Positions 6,120 through 40,800 of a stretch of DNA of 64,000 nucleotides are shown in pieces; within the stretch, counting starts at the first letter, position 1; every line of letters starts with the position of its first letter. The stretch is taken from positions 1-64,000 of the IMG/VR virus record IMGVR_UViG_3300015372_000001; one strand, written 5' to 3'. The DNA is from a virus. A program made the position numbers and the translations under genes. The notes below the pieces were generated by a model that saw only the letters and a program-made list of their open reading frames with translations, searched no databases and was not told the DNA's origin.

Positions 6120-6131
6120 GAGGGAAGCTCG

Positions 6132-24102: not shown

Positions 24103-25269
24103 TCAGGCCGCACGCTCCAGGATCGGAACGTCCGGGTGTCGGCAGACCTGCGGAGAAGACCAGTTCCCGGTGTTCCGGAAGTGCTCCTCGTCGGCCATGA
24201 TCGCCAGCAGCTGACCCACCCAGCCATCGGCCAAGGGTAGGACCCGACCGTCCGCTTCCCGCATTCCGGGAGCGACGCAGATCCGGCCCAGCCGGCAGCC
24301 GTGCTGATCGACCTGCACGATGTTGCCGTGCACGCCGTTCTGCAGGGTGTCGATCTCATACATCCCACCCTGCGAGCCCCTCACCGGGATGATGTGGCGG
24401 TCCCGGAGCGACTGCTTCTGCTCGGGTGTGAGCAGCATCTGGAGCAGCTCACCGCCCCGAGCCTCGGCCATGATCCTGGCCTCCTGCGCGGCGGCGTAGC
24501 GCTGCTCCTGCTCGAGCGCCCGACGGGCACGCTCCTCGCGAGCGCGCTGCTCACGATCGGCGAACTCCTGCAACTGCTCGGCCGTGGGCACGGTGCGCTG
24601 CTGGATCACCCGCCACTGCTCGGCGACGTGCCGGGCAGCCTCGCCGGCGTGGGTCAGGGCGTCGCCCATCTGGTGCCAGCCCACATCCCAGGTGACCCCG
24701 GTCCCCTCGAAGCGGGCCATGTCCTCGTCGGCGATGGTGGTGTAGGTACCGGTGGTGGTGTTGCCCACCGTCCACCCTGCCCACATCTCGTCTCTGGTCA
24801 CGGTCCAATCTCCTATCGTGGTGGTGTTGTAGGCCGGATGGGTCCAGGTGACTGTCGGATAAACCGCCGCCGTGACCGTGGTGTAGGTGTTCAGCGCGAT
24901 CCGGTCCTGGGTGGCCTGGGTGAGGTCGTCCCAGCGATACGGGTACGGGTTCTGCACCGGGTAGGTGATGGTGGTGTGGGTGTGGGTCGGGATGTCCCAG
25001 GCCCGACCGCCGTAGTGCCGGCCGACTCGCAGGTCGTTCCAGCCGTACGGCAGCCCCTCGAACCGGCCCCGGTTCCGCCGGACGTACTCGTCGTACTTGG
25101 TCTCCCGACCGTCCAACCCCCACTCCCGGAGCAGCCGAGCCCGCTCCCGGTGGGTGCGTCTGCCGTACAACTCTCGGCTGACGTTGCGCATGTCTCGGCA
25201 CGGCCGATCCGGCTCGGAGTAGCACCTGGGACAGGCCACACCCCAGACGTTCTTGATCCGGCCGGCCAT
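24103..25269 (-). CDS. Zn-finger + Thr/Trp-rich region + coiled coil + C-terminal E2-like cysteine domain
   Basis: CPRC..C..H at the N-terminus; HGNI...GRICV and LP..D...GQLL...DE..F shared with 37125 and 37985. Confidence 0.7.
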   Translation of the reverse strand: MAGRIKNVWGVACPRCYSEPDRPCRDMRNVSRELYGRRTHRERARLLREWGLDGRETKYDEYVRRNRGRFEGLPYGWNDLRVGRHYGGRAWDIPTHTHTTITYPVQNPYPYRWDDLTQATQDRIALNTYTTVTAAVYPTVTWTHPAYNTTTIGDWTVTRDEMWAGWTVGNTTTGTYTTIADEDMARFEGTGVTWDVGWHQMGDALTHAGEAARHVAEQWRVIQQRTVPTAEQLQEFADREQRAREERARRALEQEQRYAAAQEARIMAEARGGELLQMLLTPEQKQSLRDRHIIPVRGSQGGMYEIDTLQNGVHGNIVQVDQHGCRLGRICVAPGMREADGRVLPLADGWVGQLLAIMADEEHFRNTGNWSSPQVCRHPDVPILERAA

Positions 25270-25278
25270 CAGCCGCCC

Positions 25279-25596
25279 TCACGGACTGCCCGGATGAAGC
25301 AAGTGGTGGTGACTGGGACACAGCCACCGCACCTCCAACGGCTTGGTGTAGTCGTCATGGTGTGCATCGGTCTTCTCCCTTCCGCAGACCTCGCACGGGC
25401 CTCTGACCAGCCGCCCAGACTTGAGGGCGGCGGCGACCTTGTTGCGCGCAGCAACCTTGGTCCGGTCAGCCTGCTTGGCCTTCGCGAGTTGCTTCGCTCG
25501 AGTGCGTTGGTAGTAGCGCTGGCGAGCAGCCTTCACCTTGTCGGGGTTGGCCGCTCGCCAGGCTCGGTGGTACTCACGACGATCGGGAGGCGTAGC
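25279..25596 (-). CDS. HNH-type endonuclease-like protein (start unresolved)
   Basis: CEVCG...AHHDDYTKPLEVRWLC..HH; coding-like sequence runs up to the preceding stop codon. Confidence 0.7.
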   Translation of the reverse strand, partial: ATPPDRREYHRAWRAANPDKVKAARQRYYQRTRAKQLAKAKQADRTKVAARNKVAAALKSGRLVRGPCEVCGREKTDAHHDDYTKPLEVRWLCPSHHHLLHPGSP

Positions 25597-25857
25597 TCAA
25601 CCCCCTTGGAGTTGCTTCGTCATTATTATCTTCCCGGCCTGCGGGTCGAACTCGTGGATCACGGTGCCGGTCTTCTCCCCGGAGGTCTCGTCCACGGTGT
25701 AGGCGAGCATCCCCCGCTTCTTGGCCTTGTGGAAGGCCTCCCTGGCGACCTTCACCTCGTCCTCGATCCGGGGGTCCCACATGATCCGGGTGTCCCCGGT
25801 CGGGTCCGCGATCGAGAGCATGTTGCGGCCCTCGGGTCGGATTGCGGTGTCTGTCAT
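25597..25857 (-). CDS. 86-aa Gly-Gly-terminated ubiquitin-like candidate A
   Basis: AAGGAAG SD; ends KQLQGG; paralog of 37647-37907. Confidence 0.75.
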   Translation of the reverse strand: MTDTAIRPEGRNMLSIADPTGDTRIMWDPRIEDEVKVAREAFHKAKKRGMLAYTVDETSGEKTGTVIHEFDPQAGKIIMTKQLQGG

Positions 25858-25870
25858 GCGATCTTCCTTT

Positions 25871-26092
25871 CTAGTTCCAGGGAAAGTTGTCCCTGAGGTA
25901 CTGGATCCGGGCCTCCTCGGCGAGGTTGGCCAGGTGCTTGGTGTACTGGTGGCGCGTGTAGAGCCCGAACGCAGTGCAGACCACGGCCGCCGCCAGGTTC
26001 ATCAGCGAGACCCAGTTCCACACCCACCAGGCGATGAACAGGTTGAAGGCGGCCAGACCGAAGTCCATCAGTGCGATCCAGCGCCAGTGCAC
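25871..26092 (-). CDS. small membrane protein
   Basis: Two hydrophobic segments. Confidence 0.65.
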   Translation of the reverse strand: MHWRWIALMDFGLAAFNLFIAWWVWNWVSLMNLAAAVVCTAFGLYTRHQYTKHLANLAEEARIQYLRDNFPWN

Positions 26093-26093
26093 C

Positions 26094-26969
26094 TCAGTCC
26101 ACCTCCGGCATGTGGTCGGTGGCGGGCCGGTAGCGCATGGTCTGCCGTTCGCGGCCGTTGGCGTAGTCGTTCCAGCTCCTGATCCCGTTGGCCAGGAAGG
26201 TGGTCGGCCGGTAGGTGCCGCTGATCGACCGGTAGCCCTTCTCCGAGATCAGCCAGCGGCGGAAGGCGAGGATCGGGCTGCCGGGGCTCAGGTTGGTGCC
26301 GTCGCCCAGCCGCTCCCGGAACTCGGTCTGGGTGTCCGGACCGTGCTTGGAGTACAGCGAGAGCAGCGCGATCAGGACGCTGACCGAGGTCCGCATCCCG
26401 TACCGGCCGACCGCGTTGGAGACGACGTAGCCGGGCCGGAGCGAGTCCTGGATCGCTGGGCCGACCTCATCGTCGGCCAGCTTGATCAGCAGGTCCTGGG
26501 TGGTCATGCCGACCGTGGCCGAGCCCAACGTCGAGGTGGTGCCGATCACCTCGGGGTAGGCCAGCACCTGGCGGGTGACCGCGGCCAGCACGTTCACGTC
26601 GGTGTAACCGGCGATCCGCAGGCTGTCACCCGGCGACCGGGCAGCTCCGGTGTCGATCACGCCGAAGGTCTCGGGGTCGGCATCGAAGGCGACCAGACTG
26701 GCGACGTGCTTGCGCTGGGCGGCGATCGCGGTGAGCCGGTGCCGTCCGTCCAGGACGAACCCGGTCGGATCCAGGGCGATCGGCTGGTGGGTGAACTTCC
26801 ACTCGCCGGTCTCGATCGCGTGCAGGATCTTGGCGACGTTCCGCTGGCGGATGGCGCGCTGGTTGCGCTCCGGAGAGACAGTCAGCCACTCGCGGGCCAT
26901 GGCCGGCGTGATCTTGACCTCCTCGATGCGCATCTTCCGCTTGCCACCGCCGCTAGGGGTGGTAGTCAT
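26094..26969 (-). CDS. ParB-like N-terminal domain protein
   Basis: ITPAMAREWL...NQR...GEW...PIA...LDGRHRLTAI. Confidence 0.8.
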   Translation of the reverse strand: MTTTPSGGGKRKMRIEEVKITPAMAREWLTVSPERNQRAIRQRNVAKILHAIETGEWKFTHQPIALDPTGFVLDGRHRLTAIAAQRKHVASLVAFDADPETFGVIDTGAARSPGDSLRIAGYTDVNVLAAVTRQVLAYPEVIGTTSTLGSATVGMTTQDLLIKLADDEVGPAIQDSLRPGYVVSNAVGRYGMRTSVSVLIALLSLYSKHGPDTQTEFRERLGDGTNLSPGSPILAFRRWLISEKGYRSISGTYRPTTFLANGIRSWNDYANGRERQTMRYRPATDHMPEVD

Positions 26970-26975
26970 AACTGC

Positions 26976-27245
26976 TCATTCCATGTCGGCCAGGAACTCC
27001 ATGAACTGGTTGGCCAGTCCGGGGCTCATCTGGATCGGGATTCGGATTCGGCCGGCCTGGTCGGTCCGGCCAGCAACGAACATCAGCACGCAGAGGTTCA
27101 CGAGGTCCTCGTCACGGGTGATGACGAGCTCGTTGACGCGGATGTACTCGTCAACGAGCACGGCCAGGCGTTCCTCTTCGGTTTCGGTCACGTTGGTGCC
27201 GGCGGCCTCGATGGCCTGGGCGGTGAAGGCTTCTTCGATCTCCAT
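26976..27245 (-). CDS. hypothetical protein
   Basis: AAGGAGG SD before ATG 27245. Confidence 0.65.
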   Translation of the reverse strand: MEIEEAFTAQAIEAAGTNVTETEEERLAVLVDEYIRVNELVITRDEDLVNLCVLMFVAGRTDQAGRIRIPIQMSPGLANQFMEFLADME

Positions 27246-27356
27246 GTGTCCCTCCTTGGGACGCAATGGAGCGAGCACCCGAGTGCCCGCTCCACCGCAG
27301 AATGCGACCAGGGAGGGGGCGCAACCCCCCAGTTCTCCCCCTCCCCGGTCTCTGGG

Positions 27357-29012
27357 CTAGCTGCGCACCATGATCTCGCCGTCGGACAGGTCAACGACGT
27401 GGTGCTGCAGCACCCGCTCGAACACGTTCTCGACCGCCGCCTCCAGAGCAGGCTTGGGCGGCCGGTCGGTGGCCAGCTGGTGCGCGTCGCGCTCGGCGCG
27501 CTTGGCGTTGGCCGCCCGGAGGAAGTCCTCGGTCGTCAGAGGCTGACCGAGCTTCCTGGTCCGGATGATGTTGTGCTTCACCACGTCCTCCAGCGTGCGG
27601 ACGACGAACGCCGGCATCCAGCCCTCGTAGGCGGTGTCGAGCTGGGCGTAGTCCAGCTTGGCCCGCTGCGACTCCGGGATGTGGCTGTCGATCAGCCGCT
27701 GCAGACCGGGCTGGTCCAACGGGCCGATGACGATGGTGTGGTCGATCCGGTGACCGCCCTTCATCGACTTCGGGATCTCCTCGGGGTGGTTGGTGGTCAT
27801 CAGCAGCGTGACCGCGTACCCCTTGGTTCGCATCCCGTCGAACTCCCCCAGCAGCTTGTCCATGGCGTCGGGGTTCTTGAACAGGTGCTCCACGTCCTCG
27901 AGCACCATCACCGTGGGCTGGTCCAGCCGCTGGACGAACCGAGTGGCCTGAACCAAGTCCTCGTTCCAGTTCACCTCCACGAAGTTGAACCCGTACTCCA
28001 GGCAGTACTGCCCGGCGATCGCCGCCGCGCAGGTCTTGCCACCACCGTTGTCGCCGGACAACAGCACGTTGTTCGACAGCTTGATGTGGGTCCGCTCCGT
28101 CCTCGTGATCGGCTTGCCGTCCTCATCGAGAACCGGCTTCCGACCCTCAGGGTCGGTCACCCACTCGGTGACCGGCTCGGCTTCGGGATGGTCCGCTGCC
28201 ACGAGGTTGCCCGCATGGTCGTCGTAGACGATGTTGTCGTCCTCATCGACCACGTAGACCTTGTGGACCAGGTAGCCAGCGTTGGCCTCCTTGATCAGCT
28301 CGTGGCACTCGATCAGCCCGTAGATGTGAGCCTGCAGCTCCCACCAGTTCTCGGTGGAGTAGGCGATGGTCGCCCGGTCCACCACGTACGGGTCGATGAA
28401 CTCCGGCTGGGCGGTGACGTTGCGCATCGCCTTCCCGGCGTAGATCGAGTTCTCCTTGAGGAAGTCCTCGAGGAGCAGGAAGAAGTTCGAGATGTCGGTC
28501 TCGTACTTCAGCTTGCCGTAGGCGCTGACCGAGAACGAGACTCCGTACTCGGGGTGCATCGCCATGCCCAGCTCGAACGTGGTCTCCCAGGGCTTGAAGT
28601 ACATCGTCCCCCAGGGCACGTTGTAGGACTCGCCGCGGTTGACCTCGACCGCGATCATCTGCGGCGGCGAGGCGAACCAGCCGGTGGTCCGCTTGCCGAG
28701 TGGGGTGTCCCACAGCTGGGTGAGCAGCTTGTTGAAGTTCCACGCGCCGTCCGGCGGCCGGCACAGGAAGACCTTGGAGAACTCGTAGGTCTCCTCCTCG
28801 GCTTCCTTCTTCTCGCGGATGGTCTCCTCGGCGGTCTCGAGGGCCATGTCCACCGGCAGCGCGATCTTCTTGCCGCCGTCCTTGCGTCGCTCGATCTTCT
28901 CGGTCAGGGTGCTGCGGTTCTTGCCGTGCTCGGCAAGAAGGTCACTGACCCGTCGGCGCTCCTCGTCTGCTGCCTCGGTGCTCCACGGGTCAACCTTCTC
29001 CTGCTCTGACAT
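27357..29012 (-). CDS. AAA+ ATPase
   Basis: Walker A GDNGGGKT, Walker B MVLEDVE, sensor TTNHPE, HRIDH. Confidence 0.85.
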   Translation of the reverse strand: MSEQEKVDPWSTEAADEERRRVSDLLAEHGKNRSTLTEKIERRKDGGKKIALPVDMALETAEETIREKKEAEEETYEFSKVFLCRPPDGAWNFNKLLTQLWDTPLGKRTTGWFASPPQMIAVEVNRGESYNVPWGTMYFKPWETTFELGMAMHPEYGVSFSVSAYGKLKYETDISNFFLLLEDFLKENSIYAGKAMRNVTAQPEFIDPYVVDRATIAYSTENWWELQAHIYGLIECHELIKEANAGYLVHKVYVVDEDDNIVYDDHAGNLVAADHPEAEPVTEWVTDPEGRKPVLDEDGKPITRTERTHIKLSNNVLLSGDNGGGKTCAAAIAGQYCLEYGFNFVEVNWNEDLVQATRFVQRLDQPTVMVLEDVEHLFKNPDAMDKLLGEFDGMRTKGYAVTLLMTTNHPEEIPKSMKGGHRIDHTIVIGPLDQPGLQRLIDSHIPESQRAKLDYAQLDTAYEGWMPAFVVRTLEDVVKHNIIRTRKLGQPLTTEDFLRAANAKRAERDAHQLATDRPPKPALEAAVENVFERVLQHHVVDLSDGEIMVRS

Positions 29013-29087
29013 GCTGTGCCTTCCATAGTTGGCTGTACTAGGGGTTCGTTGCACGGTCCTGCTGGTTGGTGCTGGTGGTACCTCCTC

Positions 29088-29474
29088 TCAGAGCGATCCG
29101 ATGTCCCAGATCTGCCGGTAGCTGTTGAGCACGTCCTGGCACTGGGGGTCGTTCTGATCGACCCAGGTGGGGACGGGCTTGGGGTAGGACAGGGTGTAGG
29201 TCTCGGTCATCCCGGCGATCGGGTAGTGCTCGCAGATCGCGTAGTCGCGCTTGGCGTCTCCACCCGTGCCGAGCATCAGGACTGCGAGCAGGTCTCCTTG
29301 CCTCAGCATCTGCGTCCGGGCCTGGGTGGCGCGTGCCTTCCCGAGTTCGGTGAGGTGGAGGGTGTGAGCGATCTTGTAGTCCTTGTCGATCAGGAACATG
29401 ACCTCGCGTCCGGACATGACCGAGATCACGGCCTGGACGACGCTTCTCAGCATCGGGTCTTCGGGTTCTTTCAT
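29088..29474 (-). CDS. hypothetical protein
   Basis: AAGGAG SD, GC3-rich. Confidence 0.6.
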   Translation of the reverse strand: MKEPEDPMLRSVVQAVISVMSGREVMFLIDKDYKIAHTLHLTELGKARATQARTQMLRQGDLLAVLMLGTGGDAKRDYAICEHYPIAGMTETYTLSYPKPVPTWVDQNDPQCQDVLNSYRQIWDIGSL

Positions 29475-29554
29475 GGGTCTCTCCTTGCTGACGAGGGGAA
29501 GCGAAAGGAGGGGAGGGACCCGTGCCGAAACGGGCCCCTCCCCTGGGGTGACTC

Positions 29555-30613
29555 TCAGGCGACCTTGCTGCCCTTGAGCCGGTCGTGCTCTGCCTTCAGC
29601 CGGATGATCTTGTTCAGCCGGCTGTTCTCGGCCATCGCTCCGCGGTAAAGCGCCGAGGGGTAGATCCCTGACTCCTCGGAACTGGCGATCGGCACCTCGT
29701 GCTCCGATCCCCACTGCAGAAGCAAGGACTTCTTGAAGTCCTCGTGGATCTCTGCGACGGTGGCCGACTTCTTGACCTTGGAGTGCTTACCCGCCCGAAC
29801 GTGGATGAGGTTCTGGCGACCCTGCAGTTCGCAGATGTACTCCTTGTCCTGGTCGGGCTTGTTCATCTCGGCGTTGATGAGCACGTCCAGGTCGTTGAAA
29901 CGCTTGGCAAGCGTCTCGGTCGGGATCAGGTCGCCCTCGGGCAGCTTGACCTTGTAGCCGTTGCCCTTGGCGGGCTCGGCGGCCGAGGAGTCCTCGGTCT
30001 TCTCGACCTCGGCCGGAGCCTCAGTCACAGGCGGAGCCTCGGGCGAGGTCTTGGTCACGACGACCTCGACCTCCTCGGTCTCGTCGGTGAGAGCCTCGAA
30101 GACAGCATCGACTGCCTCCTTGACCTTCTCCTCCGCGACCTTCCGGGACTTCTTCTTCGGAGCCTTCGGCTCCTCAGGGGCGGGGGCGACCTCGATCGCC
30201 ACCACCTTCTCCTTGCCTCGCCAGTTCTTCCTGGTGACGATCGTCACCACGAGGCCCAACAGGACGAGTCCCGTCAGCGCCGCGAGCAGCTTGGAGCCCA
30301 TCATGACCGCGAGGGCCACTCCGACTCCGTACGCCACCGGCTGAACCACCATCCGGTTGGCCCACTGGACCCCCGGGTGTGCCCAGTGCCAGGCCTTGGA
30401 TCCGGCGAACTTCGCCTTGTCCCAGGCCCAGGTGACTGGGGTGAGGTGGAATGCCCAGTTGCCGGCCTTCTTGGCGAACTGGACGGCCTTGGAGGTCGCG
30501 GTCTTCGCGAACTCCAGAGCCTTCCGGGCCATGGCCCGGAAGCGATCCGACACGCGCGCCATGAAGGCGTCACGGTTGGGGATCGCAGGCACAACTGCAA
30601 CTGCTGCAGCCAT
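29555..30613 (-). CDS. membrane-anchored protein
   Basis: Amphipathic Trp-rich N-terminus, TM segments, charged linker; first gene after promoter P30. Confidence 0.7.
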   Translation of the reverse strand: MAAAVAVVPAIPNRDAFMARVSDRFRAMARKALEFAKTATSKAVQFAKKAGNWAFHLTPVTWAWDKAKFAGSKAWHWAHPGVQWANRMVVQPVAYGVGVALAVMMGSKLLAALTGLVLLGLVVTIVTRKNWRGKEKVVAIEVAPAPEEPKAPKKKSRKVAEEKVKEAVDAVFEALTDETEEVEVVVTKTSPEAPPVTEAPAEVEKTEDSSAAEPAKGNGYKVKLPEGDLIPTETLAKRFNDLDVLINAEMNKPDQDKEYICELQGRQNLIHVRAGKHSKVKKSATVAEIHEDFKKSLLLQWGSEHEVPIASSEESGIYPSALYRGAMAENSRLNKIIRLKAEHDRLKGSKVA

Positions 30614-30659
30614 GGTGATCACACCCTTTCATGATGTGGTCGTTGGGGTTTGCACACCG

Positions 30660-30725
30660 GGCCCTCTTCGAGGCCGCTCCGCAGAGCCGGTCGATTGCCA
30701 CACGTCTTCGGCCCTCTTCGAGGCC
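30660..30725 (-). repeat. two 16-bp direct repeats GGCCCTCTTCGAGGCC (hairpin-forming)
   Basis: Copies at 30660-30675 and 30710-30725. Confidence 0.85.
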
Positions 30726-30739
30726 CACCCGCAGGTTCC

Positions 30740-30779
30740 GGACATGCAAAAAGCCCCTGACCATCGGGGTCAGGGGCTT
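30740..30779 (-). terminator. leader terminator
   Basis: GCCCCTGACC/GGTCAGGGGC stem plus TTTTTGCATGTCC. Confidence 0.8.
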
Positions 30780-30849
30780 CAGTGGGCGGATGGCCTCTGA
30801 CAGCCATCCGTCCTGTTTCCGCGCAGGCAGAAGCCCACGCACTGGAATC

Positions 30850-30878
30850 AGTGTATCACATACACAACACTGGGTCCA
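30850..30878 (-). promoter_or_regulatory. leftward SigA-like promoter P30
   Basis: TGGACC-17-TACACT with extended TG; AT-rich island. Confidence 0.6.
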
Positions 30879-30989
30879 GGAGACATCGGCAGTGGCCGGT
30901 GGGGACCGCGCACCGTGGGGATGCCGTCCTGCCTAACCGGCCACCACCGTGGACCGGCCCCTCCACCGGACAACAGAGGGGCCAGTCGT

Positions 30990-31247
30990 CTATGGGCTGG
31001 CCTTGCGCCTGACGGCGCACTGCTCGCACCAGCCGATGAACCGGTCACGCCGGTCCTGCCCCAGCCGCCACAGCTCGTCGGCGATGAAGTTCGGCACCAT
31101 CCGGGCGTTCTTCATCCCCGAGCAGTACGGGACGCTGTGCAGCAGCGCGACTCCTCCCATCGCGGTGGCGGTGGTGTACATGACGCCGTTGCTGGTGCGC
31201 TCCCAGTCGGCGAGCACCGACATGGTGGGCGTGAAGGTGTCAGGCAT
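30990..31247 (-). CDS. hypothetical Cys-containing protein
   Basis: GGAGG SD; H..C...C..C. Confidence 0.6.
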   Translation of the reverse strand: MPDTFTPTMSVLADWERTSNGVMYTTATAMGGVALLHSVPYCSGMKNARMVPNFIADELWRLGQDRRDRFIGWCEQCAVRRKASP

Positions 31248-31500
31248 CGGCTGCCTCCTTCTGGTCCGAGTCGTGCCAGGCCAGCCAGTCGGCGAACCCG
31301 ACGGTGGTGTCACCTAGCGCGACCTCCTGCTGCCAGAGCGCGTACGCGCCCAGGCTGCTCGGGTCCACGGCGGCAGCACGCTCCCGAGCGCGTCGATCTG
31401 CTGCCTCCATGCAGGTGGCGATCCGGTCCAGGTGGTGCCGGATCATGCTGATGTCGCCGCAGAACTGATGGTCCATGCGGCTACCCGGCTCTCCTGGCAT
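31240..31500 (-). CDS. hypothetical protein
   Basis: Coupled ORF; WQQEVALGDT..G..DW. Confidence 0.6.
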   Translation of the reverse strand: MPGEPGSRMDHQFCGDISMIRHHLDRIATCMEAADRRARERAAAVDPSSLGAYALWQQEVALGDTTVGFADWLAWHDSDQKEAADA

Positions 31501-31877
31501 CAGCCCTCACCTCCGTGCTGGACGTGGAGATCCTCGATCTCCTTGTTCCGCCTGGCTTCTCTCTCGGCGTGGTGAATGTCGCACAGCGTCTTCCACCAGC
31601 CGTGGATCGACCGGGTTTCGGCTCGCTTCCCGCACACCTCGCAGAGCTTGGTGGAGGCCTCCTCGGCGATGGCGATCGCCTCGTGGAAGCCCTCGGCGTC
31701 GGACTGGGCGTAGTACCGCAGCCCGCCGAACTTCTCCTTGACCTGCTGGAGGGTGAAGTCCGGGTCCAGGTCGTTGAGCTGGAGCTCCAGGTTGCGGAGC
31801 AGTTGGTGCCAGCCCTCACCGACGTTGCTAGCCGCAGTCATCATCGGTGATGCCTGCGGCCCGAAACAGGTGGTCAT
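31500..31877 (-). CDS. conserved phage protein (QVKEKFGGLRYY family)
   Basis: GW..L...QVKEKFGGLRYY...CEVCG...LC..H. Confidence 0.75.
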   Translation of the reverse strand: MTTCFGPQASPMMTAASNVGEGWHQLLRNLELQLNDLDPDFTLQQVKEKFGGLRYYAQSDAEGFHEAIAIAEEASTKLCEVCGKRAETRSIHGWWKTLCDIHHAEREARRNKEIEDLHVQHGGEG

Positions 31878-32248
31878 GACACTCCCTCGGTTTCCTGTGG
31901 TTCACGAGCCCAGTACTCGTGAACCTGATCCCAGCCATCCAGCCGCTGACCGGCCAGGTGCATCACGTAGATGTCGGCGACGTGCATCATCACTCCGTAG
32001 CCCTCCATCGGGCCGCGGGTCACGATGATCCCGCCGACGTTGGCGGTCTGCTTGGCACCGGTCACCTCGACCAGCGCCACCAGTTGGGCGAGCTCGTGGA
32101 CCACCACGTCGTACGTCGGGCAGTCCTTGATGCCGCGGACTACCTTCAGGATCTGGTAGACCCGTCTGGCCTGCTCGCGCAGATGGTCGTTGTCCTTCAG
32201 CTCCGCGCTGCGGGGCATCCACTCGTGGTTCGGATCCAAGTTGCTCAT
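31874..32248 (-). CDS. hypothetical protein
   Basis: AAGGAG SD, coupled. Confidence 0.6.
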   Translation of the reverse strand: MSNLDPNHEWMPRSAELKDNDHLREQARRVYQILKVVRGIKDCPTYDVVVHELAQLVALVEVTGAKQTANVGGIIVTRGPMEGYGVMMHVADIYVMHLAGQRLDGWDQVHEYWAREPQETEGVS

Positions 32249-32454
32249 GTCTCTCCTTTCTCGTGCTCTAGGTTGTGTTGCTCGGCGTACTTCGCGGAGA
32301 GCTCGGCGAGCCCTCCCAGACCCTCGGTGAACCGGGGCCATGCGTGCCCGCAGTGCGGGCACACCCAGTACAGAACTCCGTCGTAGACCCCGAGCACCTC
32401 GTAGCCGAGGTAGTCGGGCTCCTCGCACTCCGGGCAGCCGTCCGGTTCGGCCAT
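32245..32454 (-). CDS. Zn-ribbon protein
   Basis: CPEC...YDGVLYWVCPHCG. Confidence 0.7.
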   Translation of the reverse strand: MAEPDGCPECEEPDYLGYEVLGVYDGVLYWVCPHCGHAWPRFTEGLGGLAELSAKYAEQHNLEHEKGET

Positions 32455-32816
32455 CAGCCGTTGTAGAGCGAGGTAGTGCCGACGAATGCTCCGGACCACT
32501 CCCAGTTGTCCAGCCAGTAGGCGTTGAAGTCACGCTCGTCCAGCTGAACGGTGTCGTTCACCTCGGCTTCGAGGCGGGCGATCATCACGTCGTAGGACTT
32601 CGCGTAGCTGGTGGGCTTCGGAAGCTTGTTCAGCGGAGAGAAGCTCTGGTAGTTCAGCTTCTGATCCTTCTCCGCTCGATCAGCGACCTTGCGAAGCTCC
32701 CGGATCGCCTTCTTCAGCCAGGTCCTCCGGGCCTTCTTGTACTCCTTGATGTGCTTGGTCCGGTTCTCCTGGAGTTTGTCCAGGAGGTCGGTGGTCTTGA
32801 CCTCGGTGGGCTTCAC
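32454..32816 (-). CDS. conserved hypothetical phage protein
   Basis: AAGGAG SD before GTG; helical; P.SY...YD..I..LE...F..Y..D.W.W. Confidence 0.7.
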   Translation of the reverse strand: MKPTEVKTTDLLDKLQENRTKHIKEYKKARRTWLKKAIRELRKVADRAEKDQKLNYQSFSPLNKLPKPTSYAKSYDVMIARLEAEVNDTVQLDERDFNAYWLDNWEWSGAFVGTTSLYNG

Positions 32817-33220
32817 GGTGTTCTCCTTACTGGGTCGTTGCTGGGGCCGGTTGGCGGATGCCAGTTGCCCTTCTCGTCGCGGTACGCGGGGGTGTCGAGC
32901 ATCATCACTTCGTCCTCGATCTGGTCGCCGATGGTGGTGCCGGCGGCGTTCAGGATCTTGGAGCCGCAGTCGGTGCAGCGCATCGGACGGGCTCGCGCCG
33001 TCTTCGCATCGCTGCGCTTCTCCAGCTCCTCGGTGATCTCGGTCTCGCCGATGAAGCAGATCCCGCCGACGATGATGGCCGGGATGCCCATGGCGAAGGC
33101 GGTGGCCATCAGCGCCTTCCCGGCCGGGTCCGGCAGCCAGTAGCTGACCATCAGCGCGATCCAGGCCACCACCACGGTCACCACCGCGAACGCGGTCACC
33201 AGGCGGATGTTGTGCCGCAT
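32813..33220 (-). CDS. membrane protein with CxxC
   Basis: Two TM segments. Confidence 0.65.
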   Translation of the reverse strand: MRHNIRLVTAFAVVTVVVAWIALMVSYWLPDPAGKALMATAFAMGIPAIIVGGICFIGETEITEELEKRSDAKTARARPMRCTDCGSKILNAAGTTIGDQIEDEVMMLDTPAYRDEKGNWHPPTGPSNDPVRRTP

Positions 33221-33576
33221 CAGTAGCCACGCTCCTCGCGGATCGTCTTGCGGGCGATCTCCCGGAACCGGCCTTCGAGATCGAGCTCGGTCTTCATCTG
33301 GGCCAGTTCCTTGGTGTCGCTGGTGATCACCTGGGCCTTCTGCTGCTGGTCCAGGTAGATGTTCTTCTCCAGCGCCATCGAGGACCGGTGGTTGGAGTGG
33401 TACCAGCCGAGCGCGACGTTGGCGGCGACCGCGGTCGCGAAGAACAGCACCCCGGACCAGATGAACCGGTAGTTCACCCCGGTGCCCATCCAGATGCCGA
33501 TCAGTACCAGGGCGAACGCGATCGTGTAGAAGATCGCGATGTACTTGCTGTAGCGCAGGAAGTCGTTCCAGGTCAT
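33220..33576 (-). CDS. membrane protein
   Basis: Two TM segments; GAGGAG SD. Confidence 0.7.
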   Translation of the reverse strand: MTWNDFLRYSKYIAIFYTIAFALVLIGIWMGTGVNYRFIWSGVLFFATAVAANVALGWYHSNHRSSMALEKNIYLDQQQKAQVITSDTKELAQMKTELDLEGRFREIARKTIREERGY

Positions 33577-33851
33577 GTTCTCTCCTCAGGGTGTTGGGCT
33601 TCGTAGAAGTCGATGGAGCCGATCACCATCTGGCCCCACAGGTTCACGTCGGACTGGTCCGGGCCGAGGGCGGCTGCATAGGCCAGCCCGACCTCCTCGC
33701 GGAGGATCTCCTTGCCGTCGGCGATCCGGGTGACGGTGAGGATCCCGCGCCAGCTGTTGGTCTCCATCCGGGTCACGTCGGCCCGCCAGGCTCCGTCATC
33801 GACGCCTGCGGACCAGACCAGCCCGGCGATCTCGGCGGGTTCTTCGGTCAT
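33573..33851 (-). CDS. hypothetical protein
   Basis: GAGGAG SD. Confidence 0.65.
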   Translation of the reverse strand: MTEEPAEIAGLVWSAGVDDGAWRADVTRMETNSWRGILTVTRIADGKEILREEVGLAYAAALGPDQSDVNLWGQMVIGSIDFYEAQHPEERT

Positions 33852-33915
33852 GGCAGCTCCTCTCACAAGTCGAGGGGGCAGCAAGCAGGACGTGCCTGCT
33901 CACTGCCCCCTGGTC

Positions 33916-34149
33916 TCAGGCGACGTTCTTCAGATGGCGGATGGCCATCAGCACGAACGTCTTGGTGGACTCGAAGTAGGTGATCTTGCGAGTCACCTCG
34001 GTGCTGGTCGCGGTGAAGCCGTTCTGGCTGAACAGCTGACGAGCGAACTCACCGATCTCTCGGGTCATCTTGTCGATCGTGACCTGGTTGGCCTTCCGGG
34101 TTCCCTTGGCCAGATCCGCAACGAACTTGATCTCGATCCTGCGTGGCAT
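33916..34149 (-). CDS. hypothetical protein
   Basis: GGAGG SD. Confidence 0.6.
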   Translation of the reverse strand: MPRRIEIKFVADLAKGTRKANQVTIDKMTREIGEFARQLFSQNGFTATSTEVTRKITYFESTKTFVLMAIRHLKNVA

Positions 34150-34153
34150 TGCG

Positions 34154-34372
34154 TTACCTCCGTTCCTTCTGTTCAGTCCGAGATGTCATGTGCCAGTACG
34201 GGCAGTCCCGGCACTTGTAGGCGCGCAGCCGTTGCCCGCCCTTGATCGCGCGATTGAGCGTGGCGCTCAGTGCATGCGCCTTGCTCTGGTAGCAGAACTT
34301 GCCGCTCTTGCACTCCTTCAGGGCCGGGGAGCGGTGCGGCTTCCTCCTCCTCGGCTTGATTCGTCGGCCCAT
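34154..34372 (-). CDS. small basic Zn-binding phage protein
   Basis: C.SGK.CY...A...RAYKCRDCPYWHMTS. Confidence 0.7.
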   Translation of the reverse strand: MGRRIKPRRRKPHRSPALKECKSGKFCYQSKAHALSATLNRAIKGGQRLRAYKCRDCPYWHMTSRTEQKERR

Positions 34373-34382
34373 GGGCCCTCCC

Positions 34383-34682
34383 TTACTCCTCGGTCCGCCC
34401 ATAGGGGTGCGGAATGCTTCTGACGGCTCGCTTCCGGCCATGCAGCGCGGCCAGCAGCGACTCGATGTAGGGGTCGTAGGTGCCTCCGGCGATGCCCTCG
34501 ATCAGGTCATCGATCTCGGGCGGTCCGGAGGACTCCGCGACCTCTTCCTCCTCGGCGCGGCGCAGCCACTCCCAGGAGTGATCGGACAGATCAGTCACGG
34601 TGTGACCGATCGGATGGGTGCAAGCCAGCCGCTCCCCGCTGACCCGGCTGGTGTACTTCTGGTTGCAGATCCGAGGGCTCAC
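34383..34682 (-). CDS. hypothetical protein
   Basis: Coupled ORF with C/H motif. Confidence 0.6.
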   Translation of the reverse strand: MSPRICNQKYTSRVSGERLACTHPIGHTVTDLSDHSWEWLRRAEEEEVAESSGPPEIDDLIEGIAGGTYDPYIESLLAALHGRKRAVRSIPHPYGRTEE

Positions 34683-35029
34683 GCCGGCTCATCTCCTTCC
34701 GGGAGCGGGCTCTCGATCGAGATGACGCGAGGCAGTGGTTCCGGTCCGACATAGCGCAGACACCGGCAGGTGGTGAGCACCTGCCGGGTGCCCAGCTTGG
34801 TCTTCTTGAAGAAGGCGACGGTGTAGTGACAGCCGTCGTCGTCGCTGTGGAACGAGTAGTGGTGCGTGCACCCACAGGTCGGGTCCGGATCGGTGAGGAC
34901 CCGGACCCGACGCTGCAGCCGAATGTTCGCCTGGTGGTAGGTCTCACCCCAGCCGAGGGTGAGGAACCAGCCGATGGCCAGCACCACGTTGCAGGTCAGG
35001 CTGACCCACAGCAGGTGCTGTGCGGTCAT
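34679..35029 (-). CDS. membrane-anchored Cys/His-rich protein
   Basis: N-terminal TM; CGCTHHYSFH..C..CRC..YVGPEP. Confidence 0.7.
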   Translation of the reverse strand: MTAQHLLWVSLTCNVVLAIGWFLTLGWGETYHQANIRLQRRVRVLTDPDPTCGCTHHYSFHSDDDGCHYTVAFFKKTKLGTRQVLTTCRCLRYVGPEPLPRVISIESPLPEGDEPA

Positions 35030-35298
35030 CTGACGATCGCCGTCTCACGATCGAGGATCTCGTACCGGGAGTAGCCGTTCTCCGGATCGCCGATGATCCG
35101 CTGCACCTCCGACAGCACCAGCTGGTCGAGCTGGATGTGGGTGTGCACCTCCGTGGAGGGCCCGTTGTCGGGGCTCTGGGCGGGCGTACGGCGCTTCCGG
35201 GGAGTCGGTTGGACCTCTCCCCTGGCCACGGCCTGAACGGCCTTCTCGTGGAGGCTGGCGGTCTCGGGGAGGGGCACGCCCTTCTTGGTCTCAGTCAT
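35026..35298 (-). CDS. hypothetical protein
   Basis: GGAGG SD. Confidence 0.6.
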   Translation of the reverse strand: MTETKKGVPLPETASLHEKAVQAVARGEVQPTPRKRRTPAQSPDNGPSTEVHTHIQLDQLVLSEVQRIIGDPENGYSRYEILDRETAIVR

Positions 35299-35620
35299 GG
35301 TCCTCCGCTCCTTCCACGGTGTCCGGGATGCCGACGAACTCCAGGTCCCGGCCACTGGCCTGGAAGATCGCCTTCATGTGCATGAACAGCGCGGCCATCG
35401 CCTGCACCGAGTCCTCGTAGTCGCGGATCTGGATCCCGGCCTTCTCGTCGTCCTCGAGGAAGACAATGGCCTTGACCGGGGTCAGGTTGGCCTCGGGGTC
35501 GCCCCGGTGCTCCTCGCGCTCTGCTTCGAGTGCGTCGTCCAAGGCGTCGGTCATCGACTGGCACAGGCGGGTCAGCCGGGTGAACGGCTGGTCGGCCTGC
35601 TTTACGTCCATGTCGGTCAT
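35291..35620 (-). CDS. hypothetical protein
   Basis: Coupled ORF. Confidence 0.6.
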   Translation of the reverse strand: MTDMDVKQADQPFTRLTRLCQSMTDALDDALEAEREEHRGDPEANLTPVKAIVFLEDDEKAGIQIRDYEDSVQAMAALFMHMKAIFQASGRDLEFVGIPDTVEGAEDHD

Positions 35621-35838
35621 GGCGTTCCTTCCTTGCAGGTCAGCTGGTGGGCCTTGAGCTCGTGTCGAGCCATGGCCGCCTGCGTCCGCAGCTGTTGCAG
35701 ACGCCGGCGCTCGGGGGCGCTGATGTGTCGCCCACGAGCCTTGATGGCCAGGCTGTTGTGCTCACCGGCGACCCGGACCAGGTTCCGCTTGAGCTCACTG
35801 CACTCCGCGCAAGCGACCCTGTTCTCGGCGATCCTCAT
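35617..35838 (-). CDS. hypothetical protein with CxxC
   Basis: GGAAGGA SD. Confidence 0.55.
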   Translation of the reverse strand: MRIAENRVACAECSELKRNLVRVAGEHNSLAIKARGRHISAPERRRLQQLRTQAAMARHELKAHQLTCKEGTP

Positions 35839-35892
35839 TCCGTTCCTTCCTGGGTGACTGGCATGATGGAACCTCGTTCCCTTCCAAGGCGA

Positions 35893-35938
35893 ACAGCAGA
35901 GCCCCGGAGCTTGTGGTGATCCCCGGGGCTCTGCTGTG
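35893..35938. terminator. intergenic hairpin
   Basis: ACAGCAGAGCCCCGG / CCGGGGCTCTGCTGT inverted repeat. Confidence 0.55.
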
Positions 35939-36199
35939 TCAGGCGACTGCTCGATCCTCGCAACCGAAGACCGGGCTATTGATGTGGTGGGTGATGTTGC
36001 CCAGCTCGTCCCGTCCGATCAGGGTGACCATCCGGATGTGCTTCGGGTTGAGCTGGGTGAGCAGGCTGGGATCGATCGCACACGAGAGCATGGTGCTGTA
36101 CTCATCCATCGCCTCTTCGAGGCTGGTGTGGTTGCGGCTGAAGCTGCTCCCACTGCAGAGAGTGATCCCCACCTCATACGTCACGGATCTGGTGCCCAT
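35939..36199 (-). CDS. hypothetical protein
   Basis: AAGGAG SD before ATG 36199. Confidence 0.55.
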   Translation of the reverse strand: MGTRSVTYEVGITLCSGSSFSRNHTSLEEAMDEYSTMLSCAIDPSLLTQLNPKHIRMVTLIGRDELGNITHHINSPVFGCEDRAVA

Positions 36200-36293
36200 G
36201 ACTCCTTCTTTCGGGGTCGGCAGGTTGGTGGTGACCCACGCCTCGCCGACCGGGAGGCATTGGCCTATCTGGCGGGGGTGTAGACCCGAGAGC

Positions 36294-36425
36294 TCACTCG
36301 AGCCCCCTGTCATGATCGTGGATCTCTTCGGTGGCCCGCCGTTGCCAGTAGGCCTCCATGAACAGGTTGGTGAGGATGGAGACCCCCACCGACCCGAATA
36401 GACAGGACAGGAAGAAGAGCGACAT
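36294..36425 (-). CDS. small membrane peptide
   Basis: MSLFFLSCLFGSVGVSIL; TGATG coupling. Confidence 0.5.
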   Translation of the reverse strand: MSLFFLSCLFGSVGVSILTNLFMEAYWQRRATEEIHDHDRGLE

Positions 36426-36610
36426 CAGGCCTCCTCCCCCGTCCAGTCGTGGCAGTTCCCGCAGTACCCCTCGCGGATGTCGTTCGGGTTGTGCGAGGTC
36501 CTGCCGCATCGCGGGCAGGTGAAGCCGGTGATGATCCGGTCCACCGCCTGCTGGGCCTTGCGGCCCCGCTCCACGAACTCGCGGAGCATGTCCTGGTTGC
36601 GCTCGGTCAC
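36425..36610 (-). CDS. small Zn-finger protein
   Basis: FTCPRCGRTSHNPND...GYCGNCHDWT. Confidence 0.7.
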   Translation of the reverse strand: MTERNQDMLREFVERGRKAQQAVDRIITGFTCPRCGRTSHNPNDIREGYCGNCHDWTGEEA

Positions 36611-37002
36611 GACTGCTCACCTTCTGCGTCGTCACGGTCGATGCGCTCGGTGGGCAACTCACCTCTGACCCGGACCTTGATCTGGTACCTGCTCCAGTCA
36701 TCCCGGCCGACCTCCTGGGCGACCACATCCTGGAAGTACTCTGGAATCTCCTCCCAGGGCACCTGGTGGAAGTCGAGCAGCTCGTTCCGCTTCAGCTCCG
36801 ACCGGTCCCGGTTGAGCATCACCGCGTTCCGCAGGTAGGCCGGCTGTGCGGTCCCCAGCGGGTGGATGCCGGACGGCTCCGCACTGGGCTGGAGCGTGGT
36901 GAACTGGGTCCAGCCTTCGGTAGGGCTGGAGAACCCTTCCGGTGTCGTCGGCTGGTTGGCGTGACCGACCTCGATGACGATGGTCGGTGCAAGGTGCTTC
37001 AT
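36607..37002 (-). CDS. hypothetical protein
   Basis: AAGGGG SD. Confidence 0.55.
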   Translation of the reverse strand: MKHLAPTIVIEVGHANQPTTPEGFSSPTEGWTQFTTLQPSAEPSGIHPLGTAQPAYLRNAVMLNRDRSELKRNELLDFHQVPWEEIPEYFQDVVAQEVGRDDWSRYQIKVRVRGELPTERIDRDDAEGEQS

Positions 37003-37124
37003 GGTGTCCCCTTTCGGAGGGTTTGGTTCCCCACGACGGTCGCCGTGGGCAGGGCGGGTCACCCTCCAGACACGCACATCCTCGACGGAGAGGACGAGGA
37101 TGTGCGTGCTGGGCAGCGACCCCC

Positions 37125-37646
37125 TCAGTAGCGGGTGTAGGCCACGACCGACTTCGCGAGGAACTGAGTCTCGTTGAACTTCAGGCCCAGGTACTGCCCG
37201 AGGTAGAAGTCGTACATCGGGATCGGCAGCGGCTGCCTCCCCTCCAGCCTCATCGCTTGGCTCCAGAGCTCGTCATCGACCCGAGGGAGCCGGGAGCGGT
37301 GCATCGACGCTGGCGTGGAGTAGTCGGACCACAGGTATGGACCACCGCAGATCCGGCCGCCCTGGTTCCCGTACGGCGTGGTGGACTTGAACCTGAAGCT
37401 GATGTTCTCCACCATCCCGGTGAACCGGATCTCATAGACGGCCGATTCGGTCTCCACCTGGATCGGATTGCTGAGATTGCTATCCCAGTCGCCTGGGTCC
37501 ACCAGTGCCCGCAGCAGAGCCAGCGAGCGCTTCTCGGCATTCTCCTGGCGCTGCTCCCGGGACGGTCGTGCGGCCCACCGGCCGTTGGGCAGCCGAGGCT
37601 GCTGGCGGAGCCGGTTCAGGACGTTGGCGACAGGACTGCTGGCCAT
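37125..37646 (-). CDS. E2-like cysteine-domain protein
   Basis: ENI...GGRICGGP; P..D..LGQYL.LK.NE..F; abuts the GG protein gene. Confidence 0.7.
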   Translation of the reverse strand: MASSPVANVLNRLRQQPRLPNGRWAARPSREQRQENAEKRSLALLRALVDPGDWDSNLSNPIQVETESAVYEIRFTGMVENISFRFKSTTPYGNQGGRICGGPYLWSDYSTPASMHRSRLPRVDDELWSQAMRLEGRQPLPIPMYDFYLGQYLGLKFNETQFLAKSVVAYTRY

Positions 37647-37907
37647 CTAGCCCCCGACCGTCTGCGGGACCATGACCACCTGCTCGGCGGTCTGGTCGAA
37701 GGTGCGGGTGACCGTGCCCGTGCCACCGCCGGAGTCCACGGTGAAGGCGAGCATGCCCTTGGCCATGGACTCATCGAAGGTGGCCATGGCCTCGTTGACC
37801 TCGGTCTCGACGGCCGGGTCGTAGATCACGTCGGTGTGGCCGGAGCTGTCCAGGATGCGCAGGACGTGCTTGCCGGCCGGAACGTCGATCTTGGTGAGAG
37901 TGGACAT
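37647..37907 (-). CDS. 86-aa Gly-Gly-terminated ubiquitin-like candidate B
   Basis: AAGGGA SD; ends PQTVGG; paralog of 25597-25857. Confidence 0.75.
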   Translation of the reverse strand: MSTLTKIDVPAGKHVLRILDSSGHTDVIYDPAVETEVNEAMATFDESMAKGMLAFTVDSGGGTGTVTRTFDQTAEQVVMVPQTVGG

Positions 37908-37984
37908 TCGGTTGTTTCCCTTCGTGGTGATACAGCGAAGCCCCACAGCCGAGTTGCTGTGGGGCGGGTGGAACATCCGTGGGG

Positions 37985-38368
37985 CTACAGGACCACGACG
38001 TGGTGCGGCCAGTGGGCGTAGGGGACGGCCTTCTTGCGGAAGGCCCGCTCGTCGTACTTCAACGCGAGGTACTGCCCGAGCCAGATGTCGGGGTCCGGCA
38101 GTCGGCCGCCTGTGTAGGAGAAGGGCTTCGGCCCCCCACACAGGGCGAACATGAAGTGCCCTTCGGTGCCGACTGCCTTGATGTTGATCGCGGTCGAGGC
38201 GAACCAGACCTGGTAGCGCTGCCCGCTCTGGCTGGTGAACTCCAGGTGGGTGTAGATCCGTCGCTGGAACCGACCACGCTTGTCCCGTTCGACCTGCCAC
38301 CGCCAGTCCGAACTGGGGACGGTGGCTCGTAGCAGAGCCCAGCTGCGTTCATAGGCCGCTCCGGCCAT
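37985..38368 (-). CDS. E2-like cysteine-domain protein
   Basis: INI...ALCGGP; LPDPDIWLGQYLALKYDERAF. Confidence 0.7.
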   Translation of the reverse strand: MAGAAYERSWALLRATVPSSDWRWQVERDKRGRFQRRIYTHLEFTSQSGQRYQVWFASTAINIKAVGTEGHFMFALCGGPKPFSYTGGRLPDPDIWLGQYLALKYDERAFRKKAVPYAHWPHHVVVL

Positions 38369-38551
38369 TCATGCTCCTTCCGTGGTGTGGGCGAGCGCGA
38401 GGAACCAGAGCTCCGGAGTGGCGTTCTCGCACCGCTCCATCGCCATGGCCTTGCGTCCGACCTCCAGTTCCCGTTGGAGGTCGGACGTGGACGCTCCGGG
38501 GCTGCTGTCCCAGCCCCAGATGTCGGCGTACCAGTAGACGTACTCAGGCAT
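38369..38551 (-). CDS. hypothetical protein
   Basis: GAGGT SD, coupled. Confidence 0.5.
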   Translation of the reverse strand: MPEYVYWYADIWGWDSSPGASTSDLQRELEVGRKAMAMERCENATPELWFLALAHTTEGA

Positions 38552-38720
38552 CTGCCACCTCGGTGGTGACGGTGATGACCAGGACATGCACCTTGCGGAA
38601 CTCGTCTCCCGGTGGGGTGGGCTGATCGGGGTGGATGTGAGGTTCCGTCATCCAACCGCCGTCGTTGGTGCGGACCTGCACCTCGACTCGCTCGGTGTAG
38701 GTGACCTCGGCGGCGCTCAT
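38544..38720 (-). CDS. hypothetical protein
   Basis: GGAGG SD. Confidence 0.55.
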   Translation of the reverse strand: MSAAEVTYTERVEVQVRTNDGGWMTEPHIHPDQPTPPGDEFRKVHVLVITVTTEVADA

Positions 38721-40112: not shown

Positions 40113-40378
40113 TCAGCCTCCTCGGCGGCCTCGGAGATCTTCGCGATCATGTCGTCCACCACCTGCGGAGCGATCTTGAGCATCGCCTGAGCCAGCCGCA
40201 GGTGGTCGTCGTCGGCCTCGAACTCGACGCTCAGGATCGCGCCCCTGGCCTTGATCATGACCTGGATCCCCATCTCGGTAGGCCGGATGCTGGCCTCGCC
40301 GATGGTCGCGCTGCAGTCGGCGTTGTTCAGCCGGGTCATCAGCTCCTCGAGCAGCTCGGCATCGGGTACCTGGGTCAC
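40109..40378 (-). CDS. hypothetical protein
   Basis: GTGA coupling. Confidence 0.55.
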   Translation of the reverse strand: MTQVPDAELLEELMTRLNNADCSATIGEASIRPTEMGIQVMIKARGAILSVEFEADDDHLRLAQAMLKIAPQVVDDMIAKISEAAEEAE

Positions 40379-40800
40379 AGCTTCTCCCCAGCGATCTTCT
40401 CGGCGATCCGGCGGACCTGGGTTGCCGAGTTGGAGCCGTCGAACAGCGCGCCCGCCTGCTCGTCGGTGAGACCGAGCTCCGTTATCGCGACGTACCGGAC
40501 ATGGATCCCGTCCACCACGTCCGTGGTGGTGTACCGGGAGTCGGCATGCATCCCGACCCAGCCGGCCACACAGTAGGCAGTGCCGCAGTGCGCCCGGATC
40601 TGGTTGAGCTGCTCGTTGTTGACTCGGGTGCCGTCGCTGTTCCAGACCATTCTGACCAGGTGGTCGGCCATGTAGTTGGGGGGCGTCACGTACCCGCCCT
40701 GCCACCACTCGCGGTCGATCTCGGGCAGAGCGTCCTGCTCCTCTACCCACTCCACTGCCTTCCGCAGCAGCGGGATGTTGGGACTGATGTTCTCGGTCAT
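40375..40800 (-). CDS. conserved phage protein
   Basis: W.Q...HCGTAYCVAGW...A...LGL..EQA..LF. Confidence 0.7.
   Translation of the reverse strand: MTENISPNIPLLRKAVEWVEEQDALPEIDREWWQGGYVTPPNYMADHLVRMVWNSDGTRVNNEQLNQIRAHCGTAYCVAGWVGMHADSRYTTTDVVDGIHVRYVAITELGLTDEQAGALFDGSNSATQVRRIAEKIAGEKL

Follow-up and report, generated by a model that had tools for sequence, protein, structure and literature searches.

A widespread phage gene pair encoding a Gly-Gly-terminated, beta-grasp-like protein and an invariant-cysteine partner: a candidate for minimal ubiquitin-like tagging

Results

A two-gene module present twice in a soil phage

IMG/VR record IMGVR_UViG_3300015372_000001 is the genome of an uncultured soil phage, 80,737 bp in length and rated complete by CheckV. 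Its first 64 kb (64,000 nucleotides; G+C content ~65%) are the stretch of DNA that was analysed and are called “the window” here. Structural genes occupy the plus strand up to ~23.8 kb of the window; they are followed by a long leftward arm (24.1 to 46.5 kb) made up mostly of small genes and, beyond 46.5 kb, by a rightward replication arm that encodes DnaB, primase and DnaE. The leftward arm contains two paralogous copies of a gene pair (Table 1). One gene of the pair encodes a small protein ending in Gly-Gly (GG1 or GG2), and the other a partner whose C-terminal domain carries an invariant cysteine (the “Cys domain”). An initial annotation, made from the sequence of the window, had proposed that these genes form a ubiquitin-like conjugation system. 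We conclude that these genes constitute a genuine phage module, hitherto undescribed and very widespread. We further propose, with somewhat less than even confidence, that the partner is an E2-like thioester carrier (E2, conjugating enzyme) that depends on an activating enzyme (E1) of the host.

The two copies represent two types of module: type 1 combines GG1 with a long-form partner, and in type 2, GG2 is paired with a short-form partner in which the Cys is followed by an insertion. All five module open reading frames (ORFs) were found at the positions first assigned to them, and their G+C content at third codon positions (0.87-0.91) is typical of coding sequence in this genome.

Table 1. 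Genes of the two modules, and a gene lying within the first of them, in window coordinates
Feature	Coordinates	Strand	Description
Long-form partner (type 1)	24103..25269	-	388 residues; Cys domain = residues 250-388; C-terminus ERAA
HNH-like gene between GG1 and partner	25279..25536	-	85 residues; H-H-D...H-H-H-L-L-H type motif
GG1 (type 1)	25597..25857	-	86 residues; beta-grasp-like; C-terminus KQLQGG
Short-form partner, C173 (type 2)	37125..37646	-	173 residues; Asn81, Cys100; insertion of ~30 residues after Cys
GG2 (type 2)	37647..37907	-	86-residue paralog of GG1; C-terminus PQTVGG; second GG match within its own genome
Orphan short-form partner paralog, C127	37985..38368	-	127 residues; Asn62, Cys77; upstream of GG2

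The Gly-Gly proteins

GG1 and GG2 are 43% identical over 79 residues (E 9e-18), which bears out the initial view of them as paralogs that share a terminal Gly-Gly. This ending is conserved well beyond the window. A collection of 5.8 billion proteins yielded 62 relatives of GG1, at identities of 47 to 99%, and every one of the 62 terminates in Gly-Gly. The same is true of 22 of the 23 copies on 21 IMG/VR contigs, where identity falls as low as 39%, and of 18/18 copies on loci that were fetched via the Cys domain. Orthologs of GG2 at five loci (L003, L009, L059, L083 and L085) are all GG-terminated. The sole family member that extends past the Gly-Gly is encoded at positions 5902-6228 (plus strand) of locus L023 and has the C-terminus RGGGFA; this ending may reflect either a precursor form or an assembly error. 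There is also a single longer relative, the metagenome protein P0075, in which a DUF6197 domain stands in front of a C-terminal GG domain that still ends in GG. Judged by eye only, several paralogous genes at 40375-41563 (minus strand) of the window resemble the DUF6197-bearing N-terminal part of P0075.

The initial annotation had also assigned a beta-grasp fold to these proteins, and structure prediction supports that assignment. The AlphaFold2 (AF2) model of GG1 has a predicted local distance difference test score (pLDDT) of 79, and its secondary structure by DSSP (strands 12-18 and 21-27, helix 32-47, strands 50-55, 65-67 and 76-81) follows the order beta-beta-alpha-beta-beta-beta, with a GG tail that is predicted to be flexible. 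The top structural neighbors found by Foldseek and VIA are all beta-grasp or ubiquitin-like (Ubl) proteins, BubA and one bacterial Ubl among them; the scores are weak (best E 0.014, template-modeling (TM) score 0.45, Z at most 5.5).

The cysteine-domain partners

The C-terminal 139 residues of the long-form partner align with both short-form proteins of the window, and the three share an invariant Cys, Pro, Asp, Gln and Leu. The second family that the initial annotation had recognized by its invariant Cys is thus confirmed: over 162 members of the Cys-domain family, the Cys is conserved at 99%, together with an Asn (100%), two Pro (98-99%), an Asp (99%) and a Gln (99%). The family is also large. 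When its profile was searched against 1.84 billion representatives, 9,293 clusters (at 50% identity) were matched at E ≤0.001, and 5,170 at E ≤1e-10. The Cys domain is always C-terminal, in proteins of 120-516 residues. Neither it nor the GG protein is covered by any Pfam or PHROG model, and the ESM Atlas returned only unnamed clusters, with scores below 0.9.

In the long-form partner of the window, an N-terminal Zn-ribbon (Phage_zn_bind_8, E 3e-4) is followed by a Thr/Trp/Tyr-rich region, a charged helix and the Cys domain, in which the codons of Asn316 and Cys331 are at 24322-24324 and 24277-24279, respectively. The Thr/Trp/Tyr-rich stretch (24550-25100, minus strand; residues ~60-240) matches no known family, and T- and W-rich N-terminal regions similar to it recur in many long-form members. 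The 127-residue orphan paralog, for which 12 homologs were found, has no GG gene of its own; the ORF upstream of it (38369-38587) is not GG-ended.

The AF2 model of the long-form partner has a pLDDT of 87, with residues 137-139 of the domain model below 50. The predicted Cys domain is tentatively described as alpha-4beta-2alpha, a topology like that of RWD and UBC domains. Strand 4 ends with the invariant Cys, after which comes x-[H/A/G]-P; the invariant Asn is found where strand 3 starts, 14-16 residues ahead of the Cys; judging from the model, the two should sit together at the base of one hairpin. The top fold matches are RWD and UEV domains, with scores in the range that the tool calls common. 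These domains are non-catalytic folds of the UBC type.

Strict linkage of the two genes

Profile hidden Markov models (HMMs) identified 23 GG genes and 23 Cys-domain genes in 21 viral loci. All 23 are paired, on the same strand and with the Cys gene downstream, and the spacing is mostly 0-10 nucleotides (nt), the genes abutting or overlapping by a few bases. A reverse test that started from the Cys domain alone, on 28 metagenome contigs and one new viral contig, found a GG gene directly upstream at 17 of the 17 loci that retain upstream DNA. Co-occurrence of the two families in other genomes is therefore complete in both directions. Across the 21 viral loci, the pair has no further gene as a constant neighbor. 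Both module types occur together in the window and in L003, and L009, L083 and L085 also hold two modules.

The second gene would usually be translationally coupled to the GG gene. At the type-2 junction of the window (GGGGGC TAG ATG), the ATG of the partner comes straight after the stop codon of GG2, with no spacer.

Such junctions bear on the idea of E1-free chemistry like that of E2-CBASS (CBASS, a signaling system against phages that is based on cyclic oligonucleotides), by which the partner Cys would cut off a C-terminal extension of the GG protein, the energy of the broken bond being conserved in a thioester. An E2-only bacterial system provides a precedent (bioRxiv 10.1101/2022.05.25.493364; PMC12948482), the L023 homolog with its RGGGFA ending could be read as an extended substrate, and the ATG of the 173-residue partner is in frame after the GG2 stop. 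However, about 100 of the 101 GG proteins have no cleavable extension, and the partner is in the GG frame in a minority of the abutting or overlapping loci, clearly so in L010 and L014. We thus regard this chemistry as very improbable for the module. Fusion of the GG protein to its partner by stop-codon readthrough was considered too, and was rejected as a general route because the ORF coordinates place the two genes in different frames at most loci.

A predicted complex of GG protein and partner

Complex prediction for the GG protein and its partner gave a score of 0.82, versus 0.02 for the best of three controls. A score of 0.82 is reached by 58 of 80 solved complexes and by 2 of 110 mismatched pairs, counts that are rough in the present case since custom alignments were used. 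The interface has ~100 contacts; agreement between runs is at least 91% of contacts, and the pLDDT of the partner is at least 82. The model supports binding of the GG protein to its partner. On the partner side, the predicted interface comprises the N-terminal helix, residues 65-66, the Cys loop (82-87), residues 93-96 including Leu-Pro 95-96, and the helix 99-110; most of the invariant residues of the partner are therefore interface residues. On the side of the GG protein, it comprises a face of the beta-sheet and tail residues 80-86. This tail is predicted to lie against partner residues 82-87, along the Cys loop, which bears on the question, raised by the initial annotation, of whether it reaches the Cys. 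In the modeled complex, the tail also runs next to the invariant Asn.

The modeled docking geometry resembles the closed conformation of an E2~ubiquitin conjugate and also that of MoaD inserted into MoaE. It is compatible with covalent and non-covalent function alike.

A degron-like ending on the long-form partners

Among 148 representatives of the long-form partner, 82 end in Ala-Ala, 24 in Val-Ala and 2 in Leu-Ala (108/148 in all), and one of these endings is found at 27 of the 28 metagenome loci. The tails that precede it vary in length and sequence. The 388-residue protein of the window has the ending ERAA (24103-24111, minus strand), and neither short form, C127 or C173, has such an ending. 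ssrA tags use a C-terminal Ala-Ala as a Clp recognition signal, and the long-form ending looks like a degron of this type. In Streptomyces, a C-terminal Ala-Ala likewise directs the ClpP-dependent turnover of ClgR, PopR, Lon and sigma-AntA (PMC9775585). Because of these parallels, the long-form partner is probably short-lived by design.

A probable distant copy in a cultured phage

A Foldseek search of BFVD with the Cys domain returned two unnamed viral proteins (E 2.6e-4 and 1.7e-3) and AUZ95012.1 (TM 0.60, E 0.026), a protein of 397 residues from the Agrobacterium jumbo phage Atu_ph07. Only 4 nt upstream of its gene is that of AUZ95013.1, which has 117 residues, ends in KQFAGG and is one of only three GG-ended ORFs of 140 residues or fewer in the 490-kb genome. 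The two genes lie on the minus strand of MF403008 at 181237-182788 (locus L058, 7238-8789). In HMM and hhalign comparisons, their similarity to the module is not significant alone, yet the alignments are in register, including the Cys. We consider this pair a probable distant copy of the module. Since Atu_ph07 is cultured and its host is Agrobacterium tumefaciens C58, the probable pair makes experiments feasible.

Neighboring genes and genome setting

The 85-residue HNH-like gene that separates GG1 from its partner has no Pfam match and no homolog at the same position in the 21 viral loci; it is probably a mobile insertion outside the module. An unrelated small ORF occupies the GG-partner junction in four related loci (L005, L016, L021 and L022), and most loci have none. 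A 565-residue ATPase of the AAA family is encoded at 27357-29054 (minus strand), 1.5 kb upstream of GG1. This gene and a 291-residue gene were considered as members of the module and rejected, as they are unlinked to the pair elsewhere; for the same reason, the ATPase is probably not its activator. The 77-nt gap between the 127-residue gene and GG2 contains a perfect 9-bp hairpin (~37941-37964, minus strand; CCCCACAGC, 6-nt loop, GCTGTGGGG), which may be a site of RNA processing or attenuation. A DUF4262 protein is encoded at 43377-44105.

The DnaE of the phage is 35% identical to those of Gordonia phages. Near-identical DNA is present in rhizosphere metagenome runs, and no RNA dataset is listed among the sequencing runs that carry it. 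Against 50,697 GenBank phages, neither a 14.5-kb region (megablast) nor GG1, C127, P0078 and the L021 and L011 partners (tblastn) had a match; the 717-residue ORF at 462-2615 had none among GenBank phages either. When species-genome contigs were scanned with the alignments of the GG and short-form Cys proteins, neither a relative nor a host emerged.

The position of the module, in a leftward arm of small, fast-evolving genes without annotated function, is typical of host-takeover genes. This raises the possibility of an anti-defense decoy, in which the pair would titrate or poison a Ubl pathway of the host (Bil, Bub, type II CBASS Cap2 or a host E1) by forming dead-end complexes. Different host systems could each be matched by one of the two diverged copies in a phage, and the module lacks an E1 of its own. 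On the other hand, a decoy has no obvious need for its own Cys partner, and the ~9,300 clusters, the strict 1:1 pairing and the strong purifying selection on both partners suggest an autonomous function. A role as decoy is, in our estimation, improbable.

Discussion

The observations above raise the question of what a phage would do with a small GG-ended protein that is inseparable from a Cys-bearing partner. The proposal that we favor, that of an E2-like carrier supplied by a host E1, would run as follows. The carboxylate of the terminal GG would be adenylated by a ThiF/MoeB/MoeZ-type E1 of the host; the GG protein would be captured as a thioester on the partner Cys, in an E2-like step; and it would then be passed to targets chosen by the variable N-terminal regions of the partner (Zn-ribbon, Thr/Trp-rich). 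The ssrA-like Ala-Ala or Val-Ala degron would keep the long-form partner short-lived. In its fullest form, this proposal has soil phages running a minimal tagging system, in which a viral Ubl is charged by a hijacked MoeB/ThiF/MoeZ, carried by a diverged E2/RWD-like protein, timed by ClpXP and directed at host or phage targets. We put this complete scenario forward tentatively, as possible but doubtful in its entirety.

The first step can be delimited by what the phages encode. The initial annotation had noted that neither an E1 nor a JAB gene is visible in the window, and this absence extends further: the ThiF model detected no ThiF-type E1 anywhere in the 80.7-kb genome, the window included, nor in any of 20 further carrier records, of which 8 are at least 90% complete, and no ThiF gene was found in Atu_ph07. 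The Prok-JAB model had no match in the phage’s own genome or in the same 20 records, other peptidase families not having been searched. Thus, activation of the GG carboxylate, if it occurs, must be the work of a host E1. The same ThiF search was positive for all 14 control genomes of bacteria and archaea, and a host activator should thus be generally available; indeed, E1 proteins of the ThiF/MoeB/MoeZ type are present in nearly every bacterium.

The absence of these enzymes from the phage genomes nonetheless weighs against an E2-like carrier, as do several other results. For the GG family, no Pfam profile, those of Ubl, ThiS and MoaD included, was matched (31 members, E up to 10), and a sequence search of the PDB with the GG protein found no Ubl at E up to 10. 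For the partner, the UQ_con and Prok-E2 models of Pfam had no match among 29 plus 44 members, and a profile search of the PDB found no E2 at E up to 10. Structural comparison was similarly unrewarding, in that Foldseek matched nothing in the PDB below E 0.69 (one UBC13 match, at TM 0.18, is at chance level) and no E2 was among the matches listed by VIA. Further, the placement of the invariant Cys and Asn differs from the HPN-x7-Cys arrangement of UBC proteins. The initial annotation had likened the HGNI...GRIC of the long-form protein to the HPNI...GxIC of UBC enzymes; the likeness is present in that protein of this phage only, whereas family-wide just the Asn and Cys are kept, 14-16 residues apart and not 8. 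The broader claim that the partner is E2-like has fared in the same mixed way. Its predicted docking does resemble an E2~Ubl complex, but it has neither the Cys position nor the profile match of an E2. Since these are two defining features of E2 proteins, we do not file the partner as one. Finally, invariance of the Cys and of the tail is also compatible with an interface whose role is purely structural.

This last point leads to an alternative in which no bond is formed at all. The partner could be a silent binder of the UEV/RWD kind, with the GG tail and the Cys loop as lock and key in a non-covalent heterodimer; the small protein would stabilize, mask or regulate the partner, and the degron would set its abundance. 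The strong and extensive interface predicted here, with its use of most of the invariant partner residues (82-87, 95-96, 99 and 106), is what such a heterodimer would require. The non-catalytic nature of the domains that head the partner’s fold matches and the lack of an activating enzyme in any carrier genome point the same way, and the AA/VA tail suggests regulated turnover. Yet the short-form partners, without an AA tail, still keep the pair. Moreover, about 100 sequences keep an exact terminal GG, even at identities as low as 39% and probably as far away as Atu_ph07, which is beyond the usual need of a binding tail, and the shared hairpin that places an invariant Asn beside an invariant Cys has the look of an active site. 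We consider the heterodimer possible, though on the doubtful side, and retain the E2-like carrier as our preferred, if tentative, reading.

To our knowledge, all ubiquitin-like tagging described in prokaryotes to date is cellular; it serves mostly in anti-phage defense and is always accompanied by an E1. Here, similar parts occur on the virus side and without the activating enzyme; literature searches turned up no report of a GG protein encoded by a phage together with a Cys partner. If the pair does conjugate, phages could tag proteins post-translationally by borrowing a housekeeping E1 of their host, and the partner would represent a new branch of the E2/RWD fold. If it does not, it is still among the commonest uncharacterized gene pairs of soil phages, with a heterodimer model that can be tested.

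How, then, does the module compare with known systems? The RWD and UEV domains that head the fold matches of its partner, at scores in the tool’s common range, lack the invariant Cys/Asn pair. The GG protein itself is comparable to the sulfur carriers and modifiers MoaD, ThiS, CysO, TtuB, Urm1 and SAMP, which are beta-grasp proteins of ~65-100 residues with a free GG end, encoded beside a partner and often overlapping it. Carriers of the MoaD/ThiS type are activated by a housekeeping E1 that is encoded elsewhere. Further, TtuB, the SAMPs and Urm1 can also be conjugated to proteins without an E2 (Urm1: PMC9574740). The GG protein could be a sulfur carrier of the MoaD/ThiS/CysO type, thiocarboxylated by a host MoeZ/MoeB-rhodanese E1, with the sulfur passing to or through the partner Cys for a phage-specific thio-modification. 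However, the phage pair differs from these carriers in its lack of a profile match and its phage setting, and the partner is unlike MoaE, ThiG, CysM or TtuA. Its small size, a coiled-coil fusion, its variable N-termini and its frequent degron are more those of an adaptor than of a biosynthetic enzyme, and there are no sulfur-metabolism genes nearby. Sulfur transfer is thus an unlikely function for the module.

Bil (BilABCD), Bub and the Cap2/Cap3 system of type II CBASS (PMC10557695, PMC11601596) likewise combine, in compact prokaryotic clusters, a small Gly-ended beta-grasp protein with a carrier that bears a catalytic residue. Their operons, though, never lack an E1 gene and in most cases also include one for a JAB or other peptidase, in contrast to the 21 genomes and records that carry the phage pair, none of which has an E1 or Prok-JAB match. 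They also serve cellular anti-phage defense, whereas the GG/Cys pair is phage-borne, has no sequence similarity to them and has its Cys at a different position.

E2-CBASS is an E2-only system in which the substrate is processed at its C-terminus and linked first to a Cys and then to a Lys, with no E1 (bioRxiv 10.1101/2022.05.25.493364; PMC12948482). Its E2 is recognizably UBC-like, unlike the phage Cys domain. Its substrate is a cGAS-like enzyme whose cleavable extension supplies the bond energy, whereas the phage GG protein is free-standing and already GG-ended. Still, the E2-CBASS of Serratia marcescens parallels the complex predicted for the phage pair: an E2-like protein operates free of an E1, the C-terminal tail of its partner inserts into it, and the two form a stable heterodimer.

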